DNA of 33,255 bases, taken from Deltaproteobacteria bacterium. Its GTDB lineage: Bacteria; JAEEML01. Shown in pieces: positions 25,083 through 33,255 of this stretch; position 1 is the first letter of the stretch; each line of letters starts with the position of its first letter. The position numbers and the translations under genes were made by a program. The stretch lies in the NCBI GenBank assembly GCA_016283195.1, contig JAEEML010000166.1:1-33255 (forward strand), given 5' to 3'. Below the pieces are notes generated by a model, which was given only the letters and a program-made list of their open reading frames with translations, was not told where the DNA came from and ran no database searches.

Positions 25083-26312
25083 TCAAAACAATTGCCCGGT
25101 TTTTATAAAATCAAGCAAATTAGCATGGATAATGCCATTCCGATGTTGCAGCAAATAATCTGTCGTCAGCACATATTTAGGATAATTGTCATTAATCATT
25201 TCCAATGAGCGATATTCACGGTCTTCGGTATCTCGGCTTTGCATGATTGTATAGGCCACCTGAATATAGGCATAATTCATGGATTTGCCACGCACAATAA
25301 AGTCGCATTCCAGTTTACCGATGCGGCCGATGCTGATTTGGTAATCATGCGATCTGGCATAAATGTAAAGCATATTTTCCAGAACAGGCCCATAATTGAT
25401 GCGGTTATCAGTATTATCGGCATAAAAAAAGCTCAAATCAGCAAGGTAATACTTTTTTTCATTTTTTAAGGCCTTTTTTGATTTAATATCAAAGCGCGAA
25501 CATTCATATAAAATTTTTGCATTAACGAGAATCCGAAGATAACGGGCAAGGGTTTCACGGGTGATGGCGATTCCCTGTGCTCTTAGGGCATTGTATATAT
25601 TAGAAATATTTGTCGTTGCTCCAAAATTTGCTATCAAATATTTTCTAACGGCATCAAAAGTTTCCCGGTCGCGGATCTTCATCCTATGGCAGATATCTTT
25701 TTCAAAAATTTCCTGAATAATACTCCCAACATAACGTTGTTTTTCTGTAAGATCGCTATATTGCAATGCTTTTGGAAATCCACCGGACAAGATATATTGA
25801 TTGAGTTCGGCAAGTGGATTTACCTCTATAGCAAGCCCATAGAAGAGCTTCATCTTTTCGTATTCTTCAAAACTGAGCGGAAACATTTCAAATTCGATAT
25901 AGCGGCCCGTGAGTTTTGTAACAAGGGCGCCACTAAGGAGATAGGAGTTTGAGCCGGTGATAAAAATCGACCAACCACCATCAGTTCTAAAACCATTGAT
26001 GACTGGTTCAAAATCGCGCACGTTCTGGATTTCATCAATAAACAGATATTTGCGCCCGGCCCCAGCATCATGCGCTTCAATAAGCTTTTCAAGCGCATCG
26101 GCATTAGTTATCCGGCGGTATTGGCGGGCATCCAAATCGAGATAGACAATCTGATCTGGCTTAACCCCACTAGCTACCAGTTCCTGGGCAATTGTCTGCA
26201 TCAGACTTGATTTACCACAGCGCCGCACACCGGTAATAACTTTAATGATCTCCTCATCATGATAAAATCCGCGTATCTTTTTAAGATATAGTTCCCTAGG
26301 AAAAAGTTCCAT
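25083..26312 (-). CDS. AAA_14 + DUF4143 ATP-binding protein
   Basis: ITGVRRCGKS, FIDEIQ, ITGSNSYLL, LTGRY, GGFP, KYYLAD, LEN, ECDF, YIQV. Confidence 0.92.
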   Translation of the reverse strand: MELFPRELYLKKIRGFYHDEEIIKVITGVRRCGKSSLMQTIAQELVASGVKPDQIVYLDLDARQYRRITNADALEKLIEAHDAGAGRKYLFIDEIQNVRDFEPVINGFRTDGGWSIFITGSNSYLLSGALVTKLTGRYIEFEMFPLSFEEYEKMKLFYGLAIEVNPLAELNQYILSGGFPKALQYSDLTEKQRYVGSIIQEIFEKDICHRMKIRDRETFDAVRKYLIANFGATTNISNIYNALRAQGIAITRETLARYLRILVNAKILYECSRFDIKSKKALKNEKKYYLADLSFFYADNTDNRINYGPVLENMLYIYARSHDYQISIGRIGKLECDFIVRGKSMNYAYIQVAYTIMQSRDTEDREYRSLEMINDNYPKYVLTTDYLLQHRNGIIHANLLDFIKTGQLF

Positions 26313-26361
26313 GCCATACTCCTGACGCTGGCATCATAACAGATGCTCCGGAATAGTATGC

Positions 26362-26408
26362 GTTAAGCCGTCACTTTTAGCAATTTTTTTCAAAACTGAC
26401 GGCTTAAC
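26362..26408. promoter_or_regulatory. inverted-repeat operator overlapping the AAA-DUF4143 promoter
   Basis: GTTAAGCCGTCA / TGACGGCTTAAC with 23-bp spacer; on the minus strand TTGCTA-17-CATACT has one arm between -35 and -10. Confidence 0.7.
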
Positions 26409-26527
26409 TCGCCTTTTTGGGGGGCTTTAGCCGGCGGCCTCTTGAGACTGCGCCTCCATGGCTTAAGCCTCACAGGACAGCTATTACTTACGCTGATAGC
26501 CCATTATCCTGCCTTGGGAGGTTCTAT

Positions 26528-27127
26528 ATGAACAAGCAATACGGATATATCCGAGTCAGCACCAGGGAGCAAAATGAAGACCGCCAGCTCAGCGCACTTC
26601 TTAGCCTAGGCCTTGCGCCTAAGCAGCTTTTTATAGAAAAACAGTCCGGCAAGGATTTTGAGAGGCCGCAATATAAAAAGCTAATTAAAAAGCTTAGTTA
26701 TGGTGATACATTATATATCAAGAGCATCGATCGCCTAGGTAGAAATTATGCCGAAATTCTGGAGCAATGGCGGCTTTTAACCAAAGGCAAAGGTGTGGAA
26801 ATCTGCGTACTAGATATGCCCCTGCTGGATACGCGCCGCGACAAAGATCTCACTGGCACGCTCATTGCCGATATTGTCCTAGAGCTTCTTTCATACGTCG
26901 CCGAAACCGAACGCAATATGATTCGCCAGCGCCAGGCAGAAGGCATTGCCGCCGCCAAAGCGCGCGGTAAAACCTGGGGACGCCCCAAGCGAAAGCTTCA
27001 GCCAAGCTTTTTTGCGGCCTTAAAAGCTTGGAAAAGCGGAGAGATAACCTGTGCTATGGCGGCAAGTAGCTGTGGCATGACTCTGGCGAATTTTAGGTAT
27101 CACGCGGGGCGACAAGCAGGAAATTAG
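26528..27127 (+). CDS. small serine recombinase (resolvase/invertase family)
   Basis: GGGAGG RBS + MNKQYGYIRVSTREQNEDRQ, SGKDFERP, SIDRLGRNY, ERNMIRQRQAEGIAAAKARG..GRP, C-terminal HTH. Confidence 0.95.
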   Translation: MNKQYGYIRVSTREQNEDRQLSALLSLGLAPKQLFIEKQSGKDFERPQYKKLIKKLSYGDTLYIKSIDRLGRNYAEILEQWRLLTKGKGVEICVLDMPLLDTRRDKDLTGTLIADIVLELLSYVAETERNMIRQRQAEGIAAAKARGKTWGRPKRKLQPSFFAALKAWKSGEITCAMAASSCGMTLANFRYHAGRQAGN

Positions 27128-27354: not shown

Positions 27355-29301
27355 ATGTTAATAGGCATCCAGGATGAAATACTGCGCCTTGCCCAATTAG
27401 GCTTGCTTAACCTGCTACTCAAAGACCAAACAACCGGTCATAACATCCGCTGGGCAACTGATGCCTATGTCCAAATTGGGCATGCTTATGAACGAAATGC
27501 CGAAATTACAGCTGATGTAATTACTGGCGAGCATTCGGGGGTAATCCGCAATCGCGCCCGCAAAGAACTCGAATTACAATCAGGCCGCACCAAATCTCAT
27601 GCAGAGGTATTTACTCCCATTTGGGTATGTAATCGAATGATTGATGAGCTTTTGGCAGATATTAGTACCACTTGTTCTGAATGTGGCAAAGCAAATCCAT
27701 TTATCTATTCAAGATGCCTGGAAATTACCTGCGGTGAAGCTCCATTTTTAGTGCAACGCTATGATGTATTAACCGGCGAGATTATCCCTATTGAGCAGCG
27801 CAAGGGCATATTAGATCGCAAGTTGCAATGTGCCTATTCACTAAAAAAAGATAATATTATCAATGAAAATTGCGAAATTTTAAAGATTATTATCTGTGCT
27901 TTTCAATCAGTTTACGGCTACGAATTGCAAGGTGACAATCTGCTTATTGCACGGCTGAATCTCTATATGACATTTGAAGAGTATCTCCAATATATCTGCG
28001 AGCGAAAGCCAACCTACGAAGAAAGCCTAAAGATGATCGAAATTATCACCTGGAATCTTTGGCAGATGGATGGGCTTACTGGACATACGCCGTGTGGTGA
28101 AAGCGCAGTATCCTCACAGCTTTCGCTCTTTGATTTCATGGAAATAAGCGATAAGCCACAAGAAACACCCAAGCCATGCAAAGTACGTTTTTATATTAGA
28201 CCCCAAAAGTTTAAAACGCTCACTATTCAGCAAATCGCAGAGCAAGGAGGACAGAGTATGAAATTCAATTATATCATAGGAAACCCGCCGTATCAGGAAG
28301 AAACAGCTGACACATCTGATATGCCTATCTACAATAGTTTTATGGATGCTGCGTACAAGGTTGCTGACAAAGTAGAGTTGATTACTCCGGCGCGTTTTTT
28401 GTTTAATGCAGGAAAAACTCCAGAGAATTGGAACGAAAAGATGCTTAATGATGAGCATTTGAAGGTCCTGAAATATACCCAAAAGAGTTCAGATATTTTT
28501 GCCAATACGGACATTAAAGGTGGCATTGCGATAACTTATAGGGATGCAAATAAGTATTTTGGAGCTATTGGAGCATATTCTCAATTTTCTGAATTAAATA
28601 GCATCAGAAATAAAGTTATCAGTAAACCTGATTTTTCTTCGTTATCTGAATGGGTTTATGCACCTGAAAGTTATAAATTTTCAGAAGCACTTCATGCAGA
28701 GAATCCTGAGATTCGGTTTAAGGGGGAAAATGTGGGAATCCTAAGTAAAGGACATGATTATGATGTTGTCACCAATATTTTTTCCAAATTGCCGAACATT
28801 TTCATTGATGAAAAAACAACAGATAATGAAAATTGGCTTGGCTTTGTAGGTCTTATCGGAAATAAACGTTTTACAAAATATATCAAACGAAAATATATTC
28901 GTCCACATGAAAACCTTGATAAATACAAAGTTATTCTTCCAAAATCGAATGGTTCTGGTGCAATAGGAGAAGTTTTATCAACGCCCGTCATCGGGACGCC
29001 CGTCATCGGGCATACCCAATCTTTTATAAGCATTGGTGCATTAGAGACCGAAAGAGAAGCAGAAAACCTACTGAAATACATAAAAAGCAAATTTGCTCGA
29101 ACAATGCTTGGTATCTTGAAAATAACGCAAGATAATAAAAAGAAAACTTGGAAATATGTTCCTCTCCAAGACTTTACCTCTAAATCCGACATTGACTGGA
29201 CCAAATCCATTCCAGACATAGACCAGCAATTATATAAAAAATATGGGCTGGATAAAAGCGAAATCGACTTCATCGAAAGCCATGTAAAGGCAATGGCATA
29301 A
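27355..29301 (+). CDS. Eco57I-like N6-adenine DNA methyltransferase with specificity region; internal in-frame start at 28258
   Basis: AEVFTP (motif X), LEITCGEAPF (motif I variant), YGYELQGDN, WQMDGL, IIGNPPYQ (motif IV), ITPARFL; AAGGAGG-7nt-ATG at 28258. Confidence 0.88.
   Translation: MLIGIQDEILRLAQLGLLNLLLKDQTTGHNIRWATDAYVQIGHAYERNAEITADVITGEHSGVIRNRARKELELQSGRTKSHAEVFTPIWVCNRMIDELLADISTTCSECGKANPFIYSRCLEITCGEAPFLVQRYDVLTGEIIPIEQRKGILDRKLQCAYSLKKDNIINENCEILKIIICAFQSVYGYELQGDNLLIARLNLYMTFEEYLQYICERKPTYEESLKMIEIITWNLWQMDGLTGHTPCGESAVSSQLSLFDFMEISDKPQETPKPCKVRFYIRPQKFKTLTIQQIAEQGGQSMKFNYIIGNPPYQEETADTSDMPIYNSFMDAAYKVADKVELITPARFLFNAGKTPENWNEKMLNDEHLKVLKYTQKSSDIFANTDIKGGIAITYRDANKYFGAIGAYSQFSELNSIRNKVISKPDFSSLSEWVYAPESYKFSEALHAENPEIRFKGENVGILSKGHDYDVVTNIFSKLPNIFIDEKTTDNENWLGFVGLIGNKRFTKYIKRKYIRPHENLDKYKVILPKSNGSGAIGEVLSTPVIGTPVIGHTQSFISIGALETEREAENLLKYIKSKFARTMLGILKITQDNKKKTWKYVPLQDFTSKSDIDWTKSIPDIDQQLYKKYGLDKSEIDFIESHVKAMA
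28981..29010 (+). repeat. perfect 15-bp in-frame tandem repeat (TPVIG x2)
   Basis: ACGCCCGTCATCGGG twice. Confidence 0.95.
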
Positions 29302-29327
29302 GACTATCAAAAGATTGGAGAGCCACA

Positions 29328-32300
29328 ATGGGAACCACCATACAAATAGAAACCATTAAAGAAATCCGCCCTATGATCTATGCCTACAATACCCCCGGAG
29401 TGAGCTACCACGATGGGTGGACCAAAATCGGCTATACTGAGATGCAAACCGTCGAAAACCGCATCGACCAACAAACTAAAACCGCCGATATTCAATGGAC
29501 TCTTGCGTGGAAACACATCGCTTTATACAACGACGAGAGTTTTGAAGCTTTCACAGATAATGATTTCCATAATTATCTGGAAATTTTTAAACATATCGAA
29601 CGTAAAAATGACGAAAATGGCCGCAGAGAATGGTTCCACATTGACGGCGAAACATCAAAAGCCTATTTTGATGAGTTTTCTGCACGTGAATGGCAAAATG
29701 ATATAAAAACCGATTATACACTACGCGATGAGCAAAATCGCGCCGTTGAAATGACCAAAACCTATTTTGAAAATGGCGGCAGCGAATTTTTGTGGAACGC
29801 CAAACCCAGATTTGGCAAATGTTTGGCGGCCTATGATTTAATCCGCCGCATGAAAATGAAAAATGTTCTTATCGTAACAAACAGGCCAAGTGTGGCTAAT
29901 TCATGGCTGGATGATTTCGTTAAATTCATCCATTGGCGCAATGAATACCGTTTTGTGACAGAGAATGACTCACTCAAAAAAAGTGCCAACAATTGTTTTG
30001 TGATGTCGCGCCAACAGTTCGTTGATTATAAATTTGATAATAACCTACCAAATATTGGCATGATTGCCTTTGAGTCGTTGCAAAGTCTAAAAGGCTCTGT
30101 TTATCACGGCGGAAAATATGACAAGCTGGATTGGATTCATGAATTAAAGTTTGATCTACTCATAGTCGATGAATCGCATGAAGGTGTGGACACACGCAAA
30201 ACTGACTGGGCCTTTGAAAATATTACGAAAAAACATACGCTATATTTGTCTGGTACACCATTCAAAGCAATCGCTAATGAGGATTTTGGTGCAGATCAGG
30301 TTTTTAATTGGTCTTATGCCGATGAACAAGCAGCAAAAGAACAATATTACCTGGCCGGTGTCTCTAATCCCTATGAACGACTGCCACGGATGTCGATGTT
30401 TACTTATCAGCTTTCGGCAATGATTCGCGACGAGCTGGAAAAAGGCTGCATGATTACAGAAGATGAAACTGTCGATTATACGTTCGATTTAAATGAATTT
30501 TTCAAAACAAATAGTAAAGGTGAATTTATCCATTTATCGGAAATAAAAAAATTTCTAAATACTTTGACAGTAAATGAAAAATATCCTTTTTCGACGCCAG
30601 AACTGCGCAATGAACTATGCCATACGCTATGGATACTGGATCGCGTAAGTAGTGCCAAAGCGCTGGCTAATCTTTTAAAATCGCACCCTGTTTTTGAAAA
30701 TTATGAGATTATACTCGCTGCTGGTGACGGTATTATCGATGAAAATGAAAAGCGAGAACGCGCTTTTGACAAGGTAACAAATGCTATCAGAAAACACAAT
30801 AAAACCATCACCTTAAGTGTGGGGCAATTAACTGTTGGCGTAACTATTCCTGAGTGGAGTGGCGTATTAATGCTGTGCAATATGACAAGCCCTGCCGCCT
30901 ATATACAGGCGGCATTCAGAGCACAAAATCCTTATACATTTAAACGCTCGGGTACTACAAGGCCACAGTACTTCCGCAAAGAAAATGCTTATATCTTTGA
31001 CTTTGATCCCGCGCGGACACTCATTATTTTCGACGAATTTGCCAATAATCTTTCGCTTTCTACGAGTGAAGGGCGGGGGACAACAATTAACCGCGAGGAA
31101 AATATCCGCCGTCTCTTAAATTTCTTCCCGGTATTAGGCGAAGATAACGACGGCAAAATGATTGAACTAGATGCAGCAAAAGTGCTAACAATTCCAAGAC
31201 GGATTAAAAGTCTGGAAGTTGTCAGACGCGGCTTTATGTCAAACTTTTTGTTCCAGAATATTTCTAATATCTTTGGTGCACCTGGCATTGTAAAAGACAT
31301 TCTCAGCAAGCTATCTCCAGCCATTAGCAATGGCAGCTCAAGAGGATCCAAACACGAGGCACCAAAATCATTAGATCATATCGAAGAAATTCCGGTTAAT
31401 GAACAAGGCGAAGTTGATATTTCCAATGAAATCGTAATTGGAACAGCAAAGGAACTTCTGGGTGAAAAACGCTGGGAAATACTTGCTGATGATGCTCAAA
31501 AAGCTGTAAATGATATAAAAATCGAACTACCAACAGCAGAAGGTAGTATTTCTGAAAACACGGCAAAAACCATCGCTACTACTCAAAAGGCAGTAGAAGA
31601 GCTAAAAAAGAACATTGCGGCTAATATTAAGAAAAATGTTGTTACAACGATCGCAGAAAACTATGGCGCAAAATCTAGCCAAAAAATGAAAATGGATTCG
31701 CAAGTTGAAGCCGCAATTGATTCTAAATTTAATAAGCGAAGGTCGGAATATGAACAAAAACTGCGCATTGCTCAGATTGAACTCGAGCGGAGGAGCGAAG
31801 AAGCGGACTCAAGCGGAAATAGCGCAATTCTTGATGAGGGAATGTCTAATTATTTGGCAGATGTCTATAAAACCACAAGAGAATTGACCGAAGGATTACA
31901 AAAAGATGTTGCTGAGATTGCCCAATCTGTTCCCCAAGAACTCGTCGAGAAGCAAGAGCATCTAAAGGCCGAAGCAGCCAAGAAAACGATAGAAGACGAT
32001 GTGCGCGCGCTGCTGCGCGGATTTTCGCGTTCGATACCAAGCTTTCTCATGGCCTATGGTGATGACGATCTGCGATTAAGCAATTTTGATACATACACCG
32101 AGCCAGAAGTATTTAGCGAGGTCACAGGTATTACTCTTGAGAATTTTATCTTTTTGCGCGATGGCGGTGATCATACCGATGAAACAACCGGTAAAACAGA
32201 GCACTTTAAGGGGCAGTTATTTGATGAAATAGTCTTTAATGATTCCGTTAAAGAATTTATGAATAAGCGACGTACTTTAGCCAATTACTTTGATGAATCC

Positions 32301-32732
32301 CTGGATGAGGATATCTTTGATTATATTCCGCCCCAAAAAACAAACCAGATATTTACACCCAAATGGGTCGTAAAAAAAATGGTCGGTGAGTTAGAAGCGG
32401 AAAACCCAGGTTGTTTTGACAATCCCGAAAACACCTTTGCTGATTTATATATGAAATCAGGACTTTACATTACAGAAATAGTCAAACGCCTCTTTAACAG
32501 TGATGGGCTAAAAGCCACCTACCCTGATGAAAAGAAACGAATCAGTCATATTATCAAGCATCAGGTGTATGGTATGGCACCAACCCGGATTATTTATTTG
32601 ATTGCGACAAATTATATATTAGGATTTGATGAAACACTAAAAAAAGAATCTACACATTTTGTGCAGGCAGATGCTGCTGAAGCTGCCAAATCAGGTAAAT
32701 TGCAACAACTGGTTGATGCCTGCTTTGGGTAA
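29328..32732 (+). CDS. restriction-type protein: GIY-YIG-like nuclease + SF2 helicase/ATPase + coiled coil + partial MTase domain
   Basis: IYAY...TKIGYT...REWF; AKPRFGK, VDESH, LSGTP, QAAFRAQNP; helical region; C-terminal DYIPPQKTNQIFTP and FADLYMKSGLY with no NPPY. Confidence 0.85.
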   Translation: MGTTIQIETIKEIRPMIYAYNTPGVSYHDGWTKIGYTEMQTVENRIDQQTKTADIQWTLAWKHIALYNDESFEAFTDNDFHNYLEIFKHIERKNDENGRREWFHIDGETSKAYFDEFSAREWQNDIKTDYTLRDEQNRAVEMTKTYFENGGSEFLWNAKPRFGKCLAAYDLIRRMKMKNVLIVTNRPSVANSWLDDFVKFIHWRNEYRFVTENDSLKKSANNCFVMSRQQFVDYKFDNNLPNIGMIAFESLQSLKGSVYHGGKYDKLDWIHELKFDLLIVDESHEGVDTRKTDWAFENITKKHTLYLSGTPFKAIANEDFGADQVFNWSYADEQAAKEQYYLAGVSNPYERLPRMSMFTYQLSAMIRDELEKGCMITEDETVDYTFDLNEFFKTNSKGEFIHLSEIKKFLNTLTVNEKYPFSTPELRNELCHTLWILDRVSSAKALANLLKSHPVFENYEIILAAGDGIIDENEKRERAFDKVTNAIRKHNKTITLSVGQLTVGVTIPEWSGVLMLCNMTSPAAYIQAAFRAQNPYTFKRSGTTRPQYFRKENAYIFDFDPARTLIIFDEFANNLSLSTSEGRGTTINREENIRRLLNFFPVLGEDNDGKMIELDAAKVLTIPRRIKSLEVVRRGFMSNFLFQNISNIFGAPGIVKDILSKLSPAISNGSSRGSKHEAPKSLDHIEEIPVNEQGEVDISNEIVIGTAKELLGEKRWEILADDAQKAVNDIKIELPTAEGSISENTAKTIATTQKAVEELKKNIAANIKKNVVTTIAENYGAKSSQKMKMDSQVEAAIDSKFNKRRSEYEQKLRIAQIELERRSEEADSSGNSAILDEGMSNYLADVYKTTRELTEGLQKDVAEIAQSVPQELVEKQEHLKAEAAKKTIEDDVRALLRGFSRSIPSFLMAYGDDDLRLSNFDTYTEPEVFSEVTGITLENFIFLRDGGDHTDETTGKTEHFKGQLFDEIVFNDSVKEFMNKRRTLANYFDESLDEDIFDYIPPQKTNQIFTPKWVVKKMVGELEAENPGCFDNPENTFADLYMKSGLYITEIVKRLFNSDGLKATYPDEKKRISHIIKHQVYGMAPTRIIYLIATNYILGFDETLKKESTHFVQADAAEAAKSGKLQQLVDACFG

Positions 32733-33024: not shown

Positions 33025-33255
33025 ATGAATAAGGAAATTACCGCTAAGAAGATAGAAGCCAGGATTCTCACCATCAGAAATCAGCAGGTAATGATTGACC
33101 GCGACCTAGCGGAGCTTTACGGAGTGGAGACCAAGCGACTTAATGAACAGGTAAAGCGCAATATTGAACGGTTTCCTGAAAACTTTATGTTTCAATTGAA
33201 TAATGAAGAATTTGCCCATTGGAAGTCGCAATTTGCGACCTCCAATGCCGATAAA
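33025..33255 (+). CDS. ORF6N (KilA-N-related) DNA-binding domain protein, runs off the window end
   Basis: Not in the ORF track; translates MNKEITAKKIEARILTIRNQQVMIDRDLAELYGVETKRLNEQVKRNIERFPENFMFQL. Confidence 0.9.
   Translation, partial: MNKEITAKKIEARILTIRNQQVMIDRDLAELYGVETKRLNEQVKRNIERFPENFMFQLNNEEFAHWKSQFATSNADK

Follow-up and report, generated by a model that had tools for sequence, protein, structure and literature searches.

Restriction systems must aim cutting and protection at exactly one sequence, which is known to be achieved by a shared specificity subunit (Type I), by a single chain performing both tasks (Type ISP and Type IIG) or by a pair of readers that have evolved separately (Type II). 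In Type I systems, the specificity subunit HsdS, which has no catalytic part, is a component of both the methylase M2S and the nuclease R2M2S, with the restriction enzyme being an ATP-driven motor. Eco57I-type systems direct two enzymes to one site, each equipped with a complete methyltransferase and reader and neither with an ATP motor. According to the respective reports, Type ISP enzymes are single polypeptides (PMC3553950), E. coli McrBC employs an in-frame internal start to generate McrB-S, a shorter C-terminal product affecting assembly (PMC12707154), and the dnmA-yeeB-yeeC operon of B. subtilis and its homologues in Vibrio crassostreae encode an MmeI-like gamma-class adenine methyltransferase, a superfamily 2 (SF2) helicase and a T5orf172 protein (PMC9973331). 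Here we have analysed a pair of adjacent genes, termed M and R, in a stretch of 33,255 nucleotides of a Deltaproteobacteria bacterium (assembly GCA_016283195.1, contig JAEEML010000166.1), which in its full length is referred to as the window. Our analysis supports their assignment to an ATP-dependent Type ISP-like restriction-modification variant, for whose arrangement we have found no description in the literature. We consider it probable that, in this two-gene system, a single back half of a methyltransferase (MC) is shared, by way of an internal start, between the front half that precedes it in M (MN) and another front half located at the end of R (MN'). The relevant features, all located on the forward (+) strand, are:

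27355..29301, +, M gene, open reading frame of 648 amino acids encoding a full-length gamma-class N6-adenine DNA methyltransferase (MN, linker and MC)
27355..28257, +, MN, front half of M (residues 1-301) with motifs X, I and II
27604-27618, +, motif X, EVFTP (M residues 84-88)
27718-27747, +, motif I, LEITCGEAPF (M residues 122-131)
27910-27924, +, motif II, VYGYE (M residues 186-190)
28244..28250, +, internal Shine-Dalgarno (SD) sequence AAGGAGG, read directly, with a 7-nucleotide spacer to the junction ATG
28258..28260, +, junction ATG (Met302), the proposed internal start, in frame with M and exactly at the MN/MC boundary
28258..29301, +, MC, nested frame of 347 amino acids containing beta4, NPPY and the remainder of the methyltransferase fold, followed by the target-recognition domain and a helical tail at the C-terminus
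29328..32732, +, R gene, open reading frame of 1134 amino acids encoding the nuclease-motor subunit
29376..29663, +, T5orf172 (GIY-YIG-superfamily-like) domain, the presumed nuclease (R residues 17-112, weak match)
29715..30263, +, SF2 helicase-like ATPase, first RecA lobe (ResIII, R residues 130-312; Pfam PF04851, E 1.6e-12), with DESH around residue 291
32010..32729, +, R C-terminal module (residues 895-1134), consisting of a helical fore-domain and MN' (residues ~985-1134)
32346-32360, +, QIFTP of MN' (R residues 1007-1011)
32436-32468, +, FADLYMKSGLY of MN' (R residues 1037-1047)
32565-32582, +, VYGMAP of MN', with Ala in place of the motif II Glu of MN

Among known systems, the Type ISP enzymes LlaGI and LlaBIII (PDB 5ffj and 4xqk) come closest in the order of their modules and in their fold. 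As in these proteins, we find a nuclease, an SF2 motor, a helical coupler region, a gamma-class adenine methyltransferase and a target-recognition domain in this order, with R containing an SF2 ATPase that is followed by a gamma-class methyltransferase region and with both the R tail and M aligning structurally to the methyltransferase region of LlaGI and LlaBIII. Unlike in Type ISP enzymes, the modules are not part of a single polypeptide, as R ends after the front half and MC is located in the upstream gene. Here, the methyltransferase is divided ahead of motif IV, the loci always encode an additional front half (MN), and MC, instead of being attached to R, is attached to MN and apparently released by an internal start. 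The nuclease is likewise different, being T5orf172/GIY-YIG-like (PF10544 on R residues 17-112 with an E-value of 7.3e-4 and 20.4 bits at a cut-off of 20; MUG113 with 2.6e-3) instead of Mrr-type (PD-(D/E)xK), and no Mrr family was detected by Pfam at the N-terminus of R.

Other systems show more restricted resemblance. The proposed use of one specificity-bearing chain for modification and restriction is reminiscent of Type I systems, but the shared chain would here be composed of half a catalytic methyltransferase domain and a reader, completing two alternative front halves, and scans with Pfam and NCBIfam identified no HsdS, HsdM or HsdR family in M or R, which places the locus outside Type I. 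A restriction gene with an in-frame internal start, as we propose it, has its precedent in McrB-L/McrB-S, although the short product would in our case carry the reader and pass to another protein, whereas McrB-S is devoid of the DNA-binding domain and titrates McrC. The dnmA-yeeB-yeeC operon is distinguished by an intact one-chain methyltransferase and by a helicase and a T5orf172 domain residing on two proteins, with no half-methyltransferase tail being described. Finally, as in Eco57I-type Type IIG systems, M matches the Eco57I methylase family (PF07669, M residues 185-382, thus extending across the MN/MC junction, E 2.2e-19) and the PADLOC Type IIG profile REase_MTase_IIG (PDLC03626) covers R residues 297-570 and MC, whereas the locus contains only one MC. 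Instead of being matched end to end by one chain, the 1359 positions of this profile are split over two genes, of which R accounts only for positions 335-627 and M only for the final positions 964-1359, which fall on MC. In our literature search, we found no description of a helicase-nuclease ending in half a methyltransferase or of an internal start freeing an NPPY-containing chain with a target-recognition domain. The main text of a paper on defence in Dolosigranulum pigrum (PMC8547433) contains none of the terms searched for, while its supplements, which were outside the search, may list the locus of strain ATCC 51524 (L100).

The anatomy of M is that of a complete enzyme. Motifs X, I, II and IV (NPPY, residues 310-313) follow each other in the order characteristic of the gamma class (X, I, II, III, IV, target-recognition domain), and the AF2 model (pLDDT 81.4) displays a gamma-class adenine methyltransferase fold similar to CamA, MmeI and Type ISP enzymes, including a recognition domain. 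In comparisons with solved structures by VIA-align, M reaches Z-scores of 17.6 with CamA (7lt5_B, residues 66-632 of M), 16.8 with MmeI and 15.8 with LlaGI. Residues E84, V85, F86, P88, E123, C126-P130 and E190 are invariant in an alignment of 42 MN sequences (A1), and MN ends with a linker predicted to be disordered (residues 240-271, pLDDT <50 in the AF2 model), which is followed by a small beta-hairpin. PADLOC divides M into two Type II methyltransferase profiles, one per half, with MN matching MTase_II PDLC03390 (327 positions, E 1.2e-65) and MC matching MTase_II PDLC03375 (348 positions). Neither M nor R was assigned to any family in an NCBIfam scan of both proteins, and searches of M, R and the MN and R-tail profiles against the sequences of solved structures returned only chance matches to cyclophilin (E ~1). 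Within MC, we also noticed a perfect in-frame tandem duplication of 2 x 15 nucleotides (ACGCCCGTCATCGGG) at 28981-29010, which translates to TPVIG TPVIG and may define a loop prone to slippage close to where the recognition domain ends; representative P0175 contains three such units (PLIGE PLIGE PLIG) and the family consensus two PxxG units.

At the boundary between both halves, the sequence at 28244-28260 directly reads as AAGGAGG, a 7-nucleotide spacer and an ATG in frame with M, as described in a first-pass annotation of this DNA, and opens a frame of 347 amino acids, which starts with MKFNYIIGNPPYQ and places NPPY at 28282-28293. This NPPY-containing half with the target-recognition domain had been proposed to exist only once, and it is indeed single-copy in the assembly of 3.2 Mb and 190 contigs. 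The anti-SD duplex of the junction ATG has a value of -11.2 kcal/mol, and none of the 31 other in-frame ATGs that M and R contain in the window has one of equal strength. The predicted RNA fold near the internal start does not differ from shuffled sequences (z 0.29), and a search for an internal promoter from which MC could be transcribed separately gave 23 promoter-like sites (compared to 17.3 +/- 3.6 in shuffles), none of them well placed upstream of 28258. Among public sequencing runs, none of RNA was listed for this DNA, and the six listed DNA runs have at most 0.14 of the sampled words in common with it.

R begins 26 nucleotides downstream of M and is preceded by its own ribosome-binding motif, GGAGAG, 5 nucleotides ahead of its ATG. 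Between the motor and the C-terminal module, residues ~690-890 (about 31400-32000) constitute a long Glu/Lys-rich and presumably helical stretch. In agreement with the annotation, which had R stop before any NPPY motif or target-recognition domain, no [NDS]PP[YFW] motif is found anywhere in its 1134 residues. The last 240 residues are modeled with high confidence by AF2 (pLDDT 89.2), and it is this predicted fold, and not the sequence, that identifies the R tail as the front half of a methyltransferase. Residues 91-240 of the model align to residues 5-158 of CamA (7lt5_A) with a Z-score of 11.3 and a root mean square deviation of 3.2 over 128 aligned residues, residues 1-240 to the region leading into the methyltransferase in LlaGI (726-1009) and LlaBIII (815-1009) with a Z-score of 7.2, and further alignments by the same program include BsaXI, MmeI, DrdV, BrxX and HsdM. 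A Foldseek search with the R tail lists the Type ISP enzymes LlaBIII and LlaGI in its first three rows (E about 2e-3). The expectation that the C-terminus of R would fold as half a methyltransferase is thus borne out by the models, in which the order of elements is identical in MN and MN' (motif X helix, beta1, helices, beta2, helix, beta3). MN' is also the best conserved part of the system, with a mean column identity of 62% in an alignment of 58 sequences (A2), compared to 52% for MC (A3, 55 sequences) and 47% for MN (A1).

The two front halves differ at one conspicuous position. In the gamma-class methyltransferase fold, the Glu of motif II binds the ribose of the cofactor. This acidic residue at the end of beta2 (Glu190) is invariant in MN but absent in MN', where all 58 sequences of A2 contain Ala190-Pro191 at the equivalent location (VYGxAP), and the same Ala-Pro is found in five fusions of R to MC that we have read. 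Since Ala replaces the ribose-binding Glu, the R tail appears to be a cofactor-blind copy, and a complex of MN' and MC would presumably not methylate. Alternatively, MN' could be fully active, such that R together with MC would both methylate and cut while MN-MC would serve as a second, maintenance methyltransferase, as in the pair Eco57I/M.Eco57I. This alternative would be in line with the retention of an acidic residue and a glycine at motif-I-like spacing in MN' (D145 and G151 in A2) and of an invariant Asp after beta3 (D221), and Type ISP enzymes do methylate (PMC3553950). However, it fails to account for the invariant difference between Ala-Pro and Glu after beta2, and it would render the separate MN, which is kept in every arrangement of the family, superfluous. 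We thus regard an active MN' as unlikely, and it would alter only one step of the proposed model, leaving the sharing of MC unaffected.

The sharing of MC requires that it can pair with the tail of R, and this interaction is found in the predicted complex of the R tail (A2) with MC (A3). Three runs scored 0.85, 0.84 and 0.86 compared to 0.01 for the best of three controls, a mark that 58 of 80 solved complexes but only 2 of 110 mismatched pairs attained. The runs share at least 95% of their contacts, and the pLDDT of the partner is at least 86. The tightest contacts are formed between R-tail residues 141-147 (NTFADLY, beta1) and MC residues 3-7 (FNYII, beta4, located just before NPPY), and thus correspond to the way in which these strands pair in the sheet of an intact methyltransferase, with residue 1 of MC being touched by the last residues of R. 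The structure prediction suggested in the first-pass annotation for the C-terminus of R with the chain of 347 residues has thus yielded a reconstituted methyltransferase sheet. A Type III-like Mod-Res reading of the system was considered and rejected because the contact is predicted to consist of this reconstituted sheet.

To place the locus in a broader context, we have searched for relatives in sequence databases. At least 6989 relatives of the 255 C-terminal residues of R were identified among 7997 scored candidates, and nearly all of 120 listed proteins have a length of ~1100 residues. Two scans of contigs from one genome per species provided 160 loci, which were reduced to 126 junctions after the removal of repeated junction sequences. 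Their hosts include Firmicutes, Bacteroidota, Myxococcota, Proteobacteria, Planctomycetota, candidate phyla and methanogenic archaea. The junctions are distributed over the following arrangements:

64 of 126: MN-MC fused, followed by R (the type of the window)
28 of 126: MN, MC and R as three genes
24 of 126: MN, followed by R fused to MC
7 of 126: MN, R and MC as three genes
3 of 126: unclear arrangement

Loci that were read gene by gene contain one MC and two front halves, and a separate MN is present in every arrangement. Fused loci are found, for instance, in Faecalibacterium prausnitzii ATCC 27768 (L026/L158) and Streptococcus mitis (L111). MC is a gene of its own at 35 of the 126 junctions (28 and 7), and both types of homologues that the annotation had proposed to look for, with the NPPY-containing part either separate or fused to R, are thus found. 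A search with the tail profile among 1.8 billion representatives retrieved 1172 matches. Among the best 150 of these, 36 extend by more than 350 residues past the motif-I-like loop, and 33 of the 36 run into GNPP[YF]. Five of six long representatives that were read are chains composed of nuclease, motor, MN' and MC, and thus single polypeptides resembling Type ISP enzymes; the single-chain relatives of R that carry MC comprise about 1300-1530 residues. In natural fusions of R to MC, the end of R is joined to the start of MC by 3-8 residues, in keeping with how the two are positioned in the modeled complex.

Several members of the family show peculiarities. In P0137 (1381 residues), the half-methyltransferase tail is followed by a different domain of ~280 residues in place of MC, which ends in a D...DFKVSK-like sequence and is possibly a PD-(D/E)xK nuclease. 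The loci of methanogenic archaea (L065, L071-L073 and L101, from Methanocorpusculum, Methanomethylophilaceae, Methanosphaera and Methanofrustulum) encode R proteins with about 48-50% identity to R of the window, and the occurrence in archaea at this level of identity suggests that the system may have moved across domains in gut habitats. A split clade of lactobacilli and their relatives (L005-L007, L010, L011, L039 and L078) is characterized by an MN of ~250 residues, which is ~30% identical to its counterpart in the window, and by an MC that starts 4-7 codons earlier (MSGEDKKFKFD...), with the extended start being kept in fused genes of the L042 clade. Other copies are in decay: in L031, M has suffered an internal deletion after which only the final ~30 residues of MC follow its front half, in L048 R is cut to 442 residues, and in L073 MC is truncated after ~170 residues.

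The junctions of this collection permit an assessment of the start signals, for which we have defined a strong SD by an anti-SD duplex of -6 kcal/mol or stronger. An ATG is present at the junction in all 64 non-redundant MN-MC fusions, and a strong SD precedes it in 43 of the 49 that are found outside Bacteroidota, the proportion being 21 of 28 in loci with an authentic, independent MC gene ahead of R. The question whether the internal ribosome-binding site is kept in fused homologues, which had been raised in the first-pass annotation, can thus be answered in the affirmative, and a start codon and a ribosome-binding site inside the frame are conserved features. The remaining 15 MN-MC fusions, from Bacteroidota, have no SD and contain an A-rich leader instead. 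Such a leader is the usual start context in this phylum. Where MC is its own gene, the junction Met is its annotated-type start. In the mirror arrangement, with R fused to MC, a strong SD is found in 18 of 21 fusions outside Bacteroidota, and the junction codons of all 24 fusions are ATG (19), GTG (3), TTG (1) and ATT (1), so that the five non-ATG codons are all usable starts.

The signals also stand out against other positions of the same genes. In a first set, the mean duplex energy is -8.4 kcal/mol at 16 unique fused junctions, whereas the 490 remaining in-frame ATGs in these M and R genes have a mean of -1.8 kcal/mol, with a strong SD in 14 of the 16 junctions compared to 7% of the other ATGs (Mann-Whitney p 3e-11). 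After synonymous reshuffling, the mean SD strength weakens from -7.8 to -6.1 in MN-MC fusions (n = 49, p 3e-7) and from -7.8 to -5.4 in R-MC fusions (n = 21, p 3e-6). The linker peptides vary between lineages (EQGGQS, NEGEIGN, QEGSTS, EKGAKR and others), whereas a GGAG-type purine motif stays, although in different codon phases.

Taken together, the comparison of homologues and the predicted structures support the interpretation of the first-pass annotation, in which M gives rise to a full-length methyltransferase and to a free chain with NPPY and the target-recognition domain that completes the half-methyltransferase on R. In the proposed mechanism, MN would act as the cofactor-binding front half, MN', at the end of the nuclease-motor protein R, as its diverged counterpart and MC, with the catalytic NPPY loop and the target-recognition domain, as the single back half. 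Since MC is fused behind MN in the window, the full-length product would methylate the target adenine and thus constitute the protective methyltransferase. Ribosomes would in addition initiate at the ATG at 28258 and produce free MC, for which the R tail is, in the arrangement of the window, the only unpaired partner. Free MC would dock on MN' by the same beta4-beta1 pairing that it engages in with MN, thereby providing R with the very sequence reader that the methyltransferase uses, and the resulting MN'-MC assembly would have the specificity of M but probably not transfer methyl groups. R would then act like a Type ISP enzyme by recognizing an unmethylated site, translocating at the expense of ATP and cutting with its T5orf172 domain. 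In the mirror arrangement (MN followed by R-MC), it is the orphan MN that would be supplied with free MC by the nested start. Whether the same description applies to the whole of this very large family appears to us evenly balanced, namely that a half-enzyme consisting of NPPY and reader alternates between a cofactor-binding front half for methylation and a cofactor-blind one on a nuclease-motor for restriction and that, where it is fused to either, a conserved nested start frees it for the other.

Such a mechanism would have several consequences. Self and non-self would be read by literally one polypeptide, translation initiation would determine how protection is balanced against attack, and the exchange of one module of 347 residues would retarget both activities at once. 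In comparison to the described solutions, the shared piece would be half a catalytic domain that is passed between two complements and released by a nested start codon, making the system a clear example of protein-fragment complementation in nature. In about half of the loci, one of the proteins produced would in turn be overlooked by automatic annotation. The family itself is large, widespread and uncharacterised, and its members are without a curated NCBIfam model.

There are, on the other hand, observations that weigh against this reading. The first concerns the mirror arrangement, in which no Met is found at or next to the junction in ~11 of 33 representative R-MC fusion proteins (where Leu, Val and other residues are found instead, with ~22 of 33 containing a Met, as judged from protein sequences in which the codons are not visible). 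Free MN faces a mirror-image problem in this arrangement, and the lack of a junction Met in about one third of these proteins would be accommodated if there was no internal start and R obtained its specificity from full-length M. In one variant of this explanation, MN' would displace the tethered MN from MC, assisted by the disordered linker of ~30 residues, whose prediction in M would be compatible with MN swinging away; in another, R would bind M by a different surface, similar to the binding of Res to Mod in Type III systems. Neither variant explains why ATG is present in 64 of 64 MN-MC junctions and a strong SD in 43 of 49 outside Bacteroidota, nor why all five non-ATG codons in R-MC fusions are usable starts (GTG, TTG and ATT), and as far as can be concluded from the complex model, the tethered MN should out-compete MN' for the edge of beta4. 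We therefore consider specificity by exchange or docking, in place of an internal start, to be quite improbable.

A second concern relates to the age of the fusions. On a quick tree of R containing 61 labelled loci, the state of the junction has changed between fused and split at least nine times, and many fusions may thus be young, in which case their start signals could be inherited leftovers instead of features under selection. The p-values of the junction comparisons (3e-11, 3e-7 and 3e-6) in turn overstate independence because the loci are related. The junction ATG and its SD could accordingly be relics of a recent gene fusion, with the fused M being merely a methyltransferase and R, in fused loci, either readerless and decaying or working in another way. 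The number of changes on the tree would be consistent with this scenario, as would the presence of plainly decaying loci (L031, L048 and L073) and the close spacing, in several split loci, of the MN stop codon and the start of MC, which lie within a few bases of each other, such that one substitution would fuse them. Conversely, R is a full-length open frame in the complete fused loci that we have tabulated and its tail is the best conserved part. The fused loci of the window and L004, which in R are separated by 0.88 changes per site, have linkers that cannot be aligned but both contain an SD and an ATG; the fusions in Bacteroidota form a deep clade (18 rows); and codon choice favours the SD over synonymous alternatives. 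A mere relic is on these grounds the explanation to which we attach the least belief.

The remaining reservations concern the evidence for the proposed sharing of MC itself. The sequence likeness of MN and MN' is limited to ~20 residues of the motif X helix, comprising 19 residues around FTP in BLASTP (E 0.001) and 21 columns in a profile-profile alignment (probability 90.8%, E 1.2e-6), and this short extent of the alignment implies that homology of the front halves is not shown by sequence beyond motif X. From the initial claim that the front half occurs twice, the motifs are thus found at their described places and the fold agrees, whereas the repeat, at the level of sequence, consists of the motif X helix only. 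Foldseek E-values for the R tail are only about 2e-3, and its Z-score of 7.2 with the Type ISP enzymes falls in the common range of the alignment tool. The scores of the complex (0.84-0.86) are a model confidence obtained from our own alignments and may partly reflect a memory of intact methyltransferase folds. Finally, the compositionally similar dnmA-yeeB-yeeC operon of B. subtilis showed no restriction in the reported tests (PMC9973331).

Concerning its genomic context, the pair of M and R is located between a gene on the minus strand coding for a DUF4143 AAA ATPase and a gene for a serine recombinase (together at 25083-27127) on one side and a gene for an ORF6N-domain protein (33025-33255) on the other. 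The left neighbour, which is not part of the system, is:

26417..27127, +, serine recombinase of the resolvase/invertase type (Pfam Resolvase, E 1.4e-30)

From 25 kb on, the GC content is mostly about 0.38-0.43, compared to 0.48-0.53 before. In light of this lower GC content and of the DUF4143, serine recombinase and ORF6N genes, the stretch harbouring the restriction-modification pair looks like an acquired, mobile island. The bin at 26001-27000, which holds the recombinase gene, is an exception with a GC content of 0.479.

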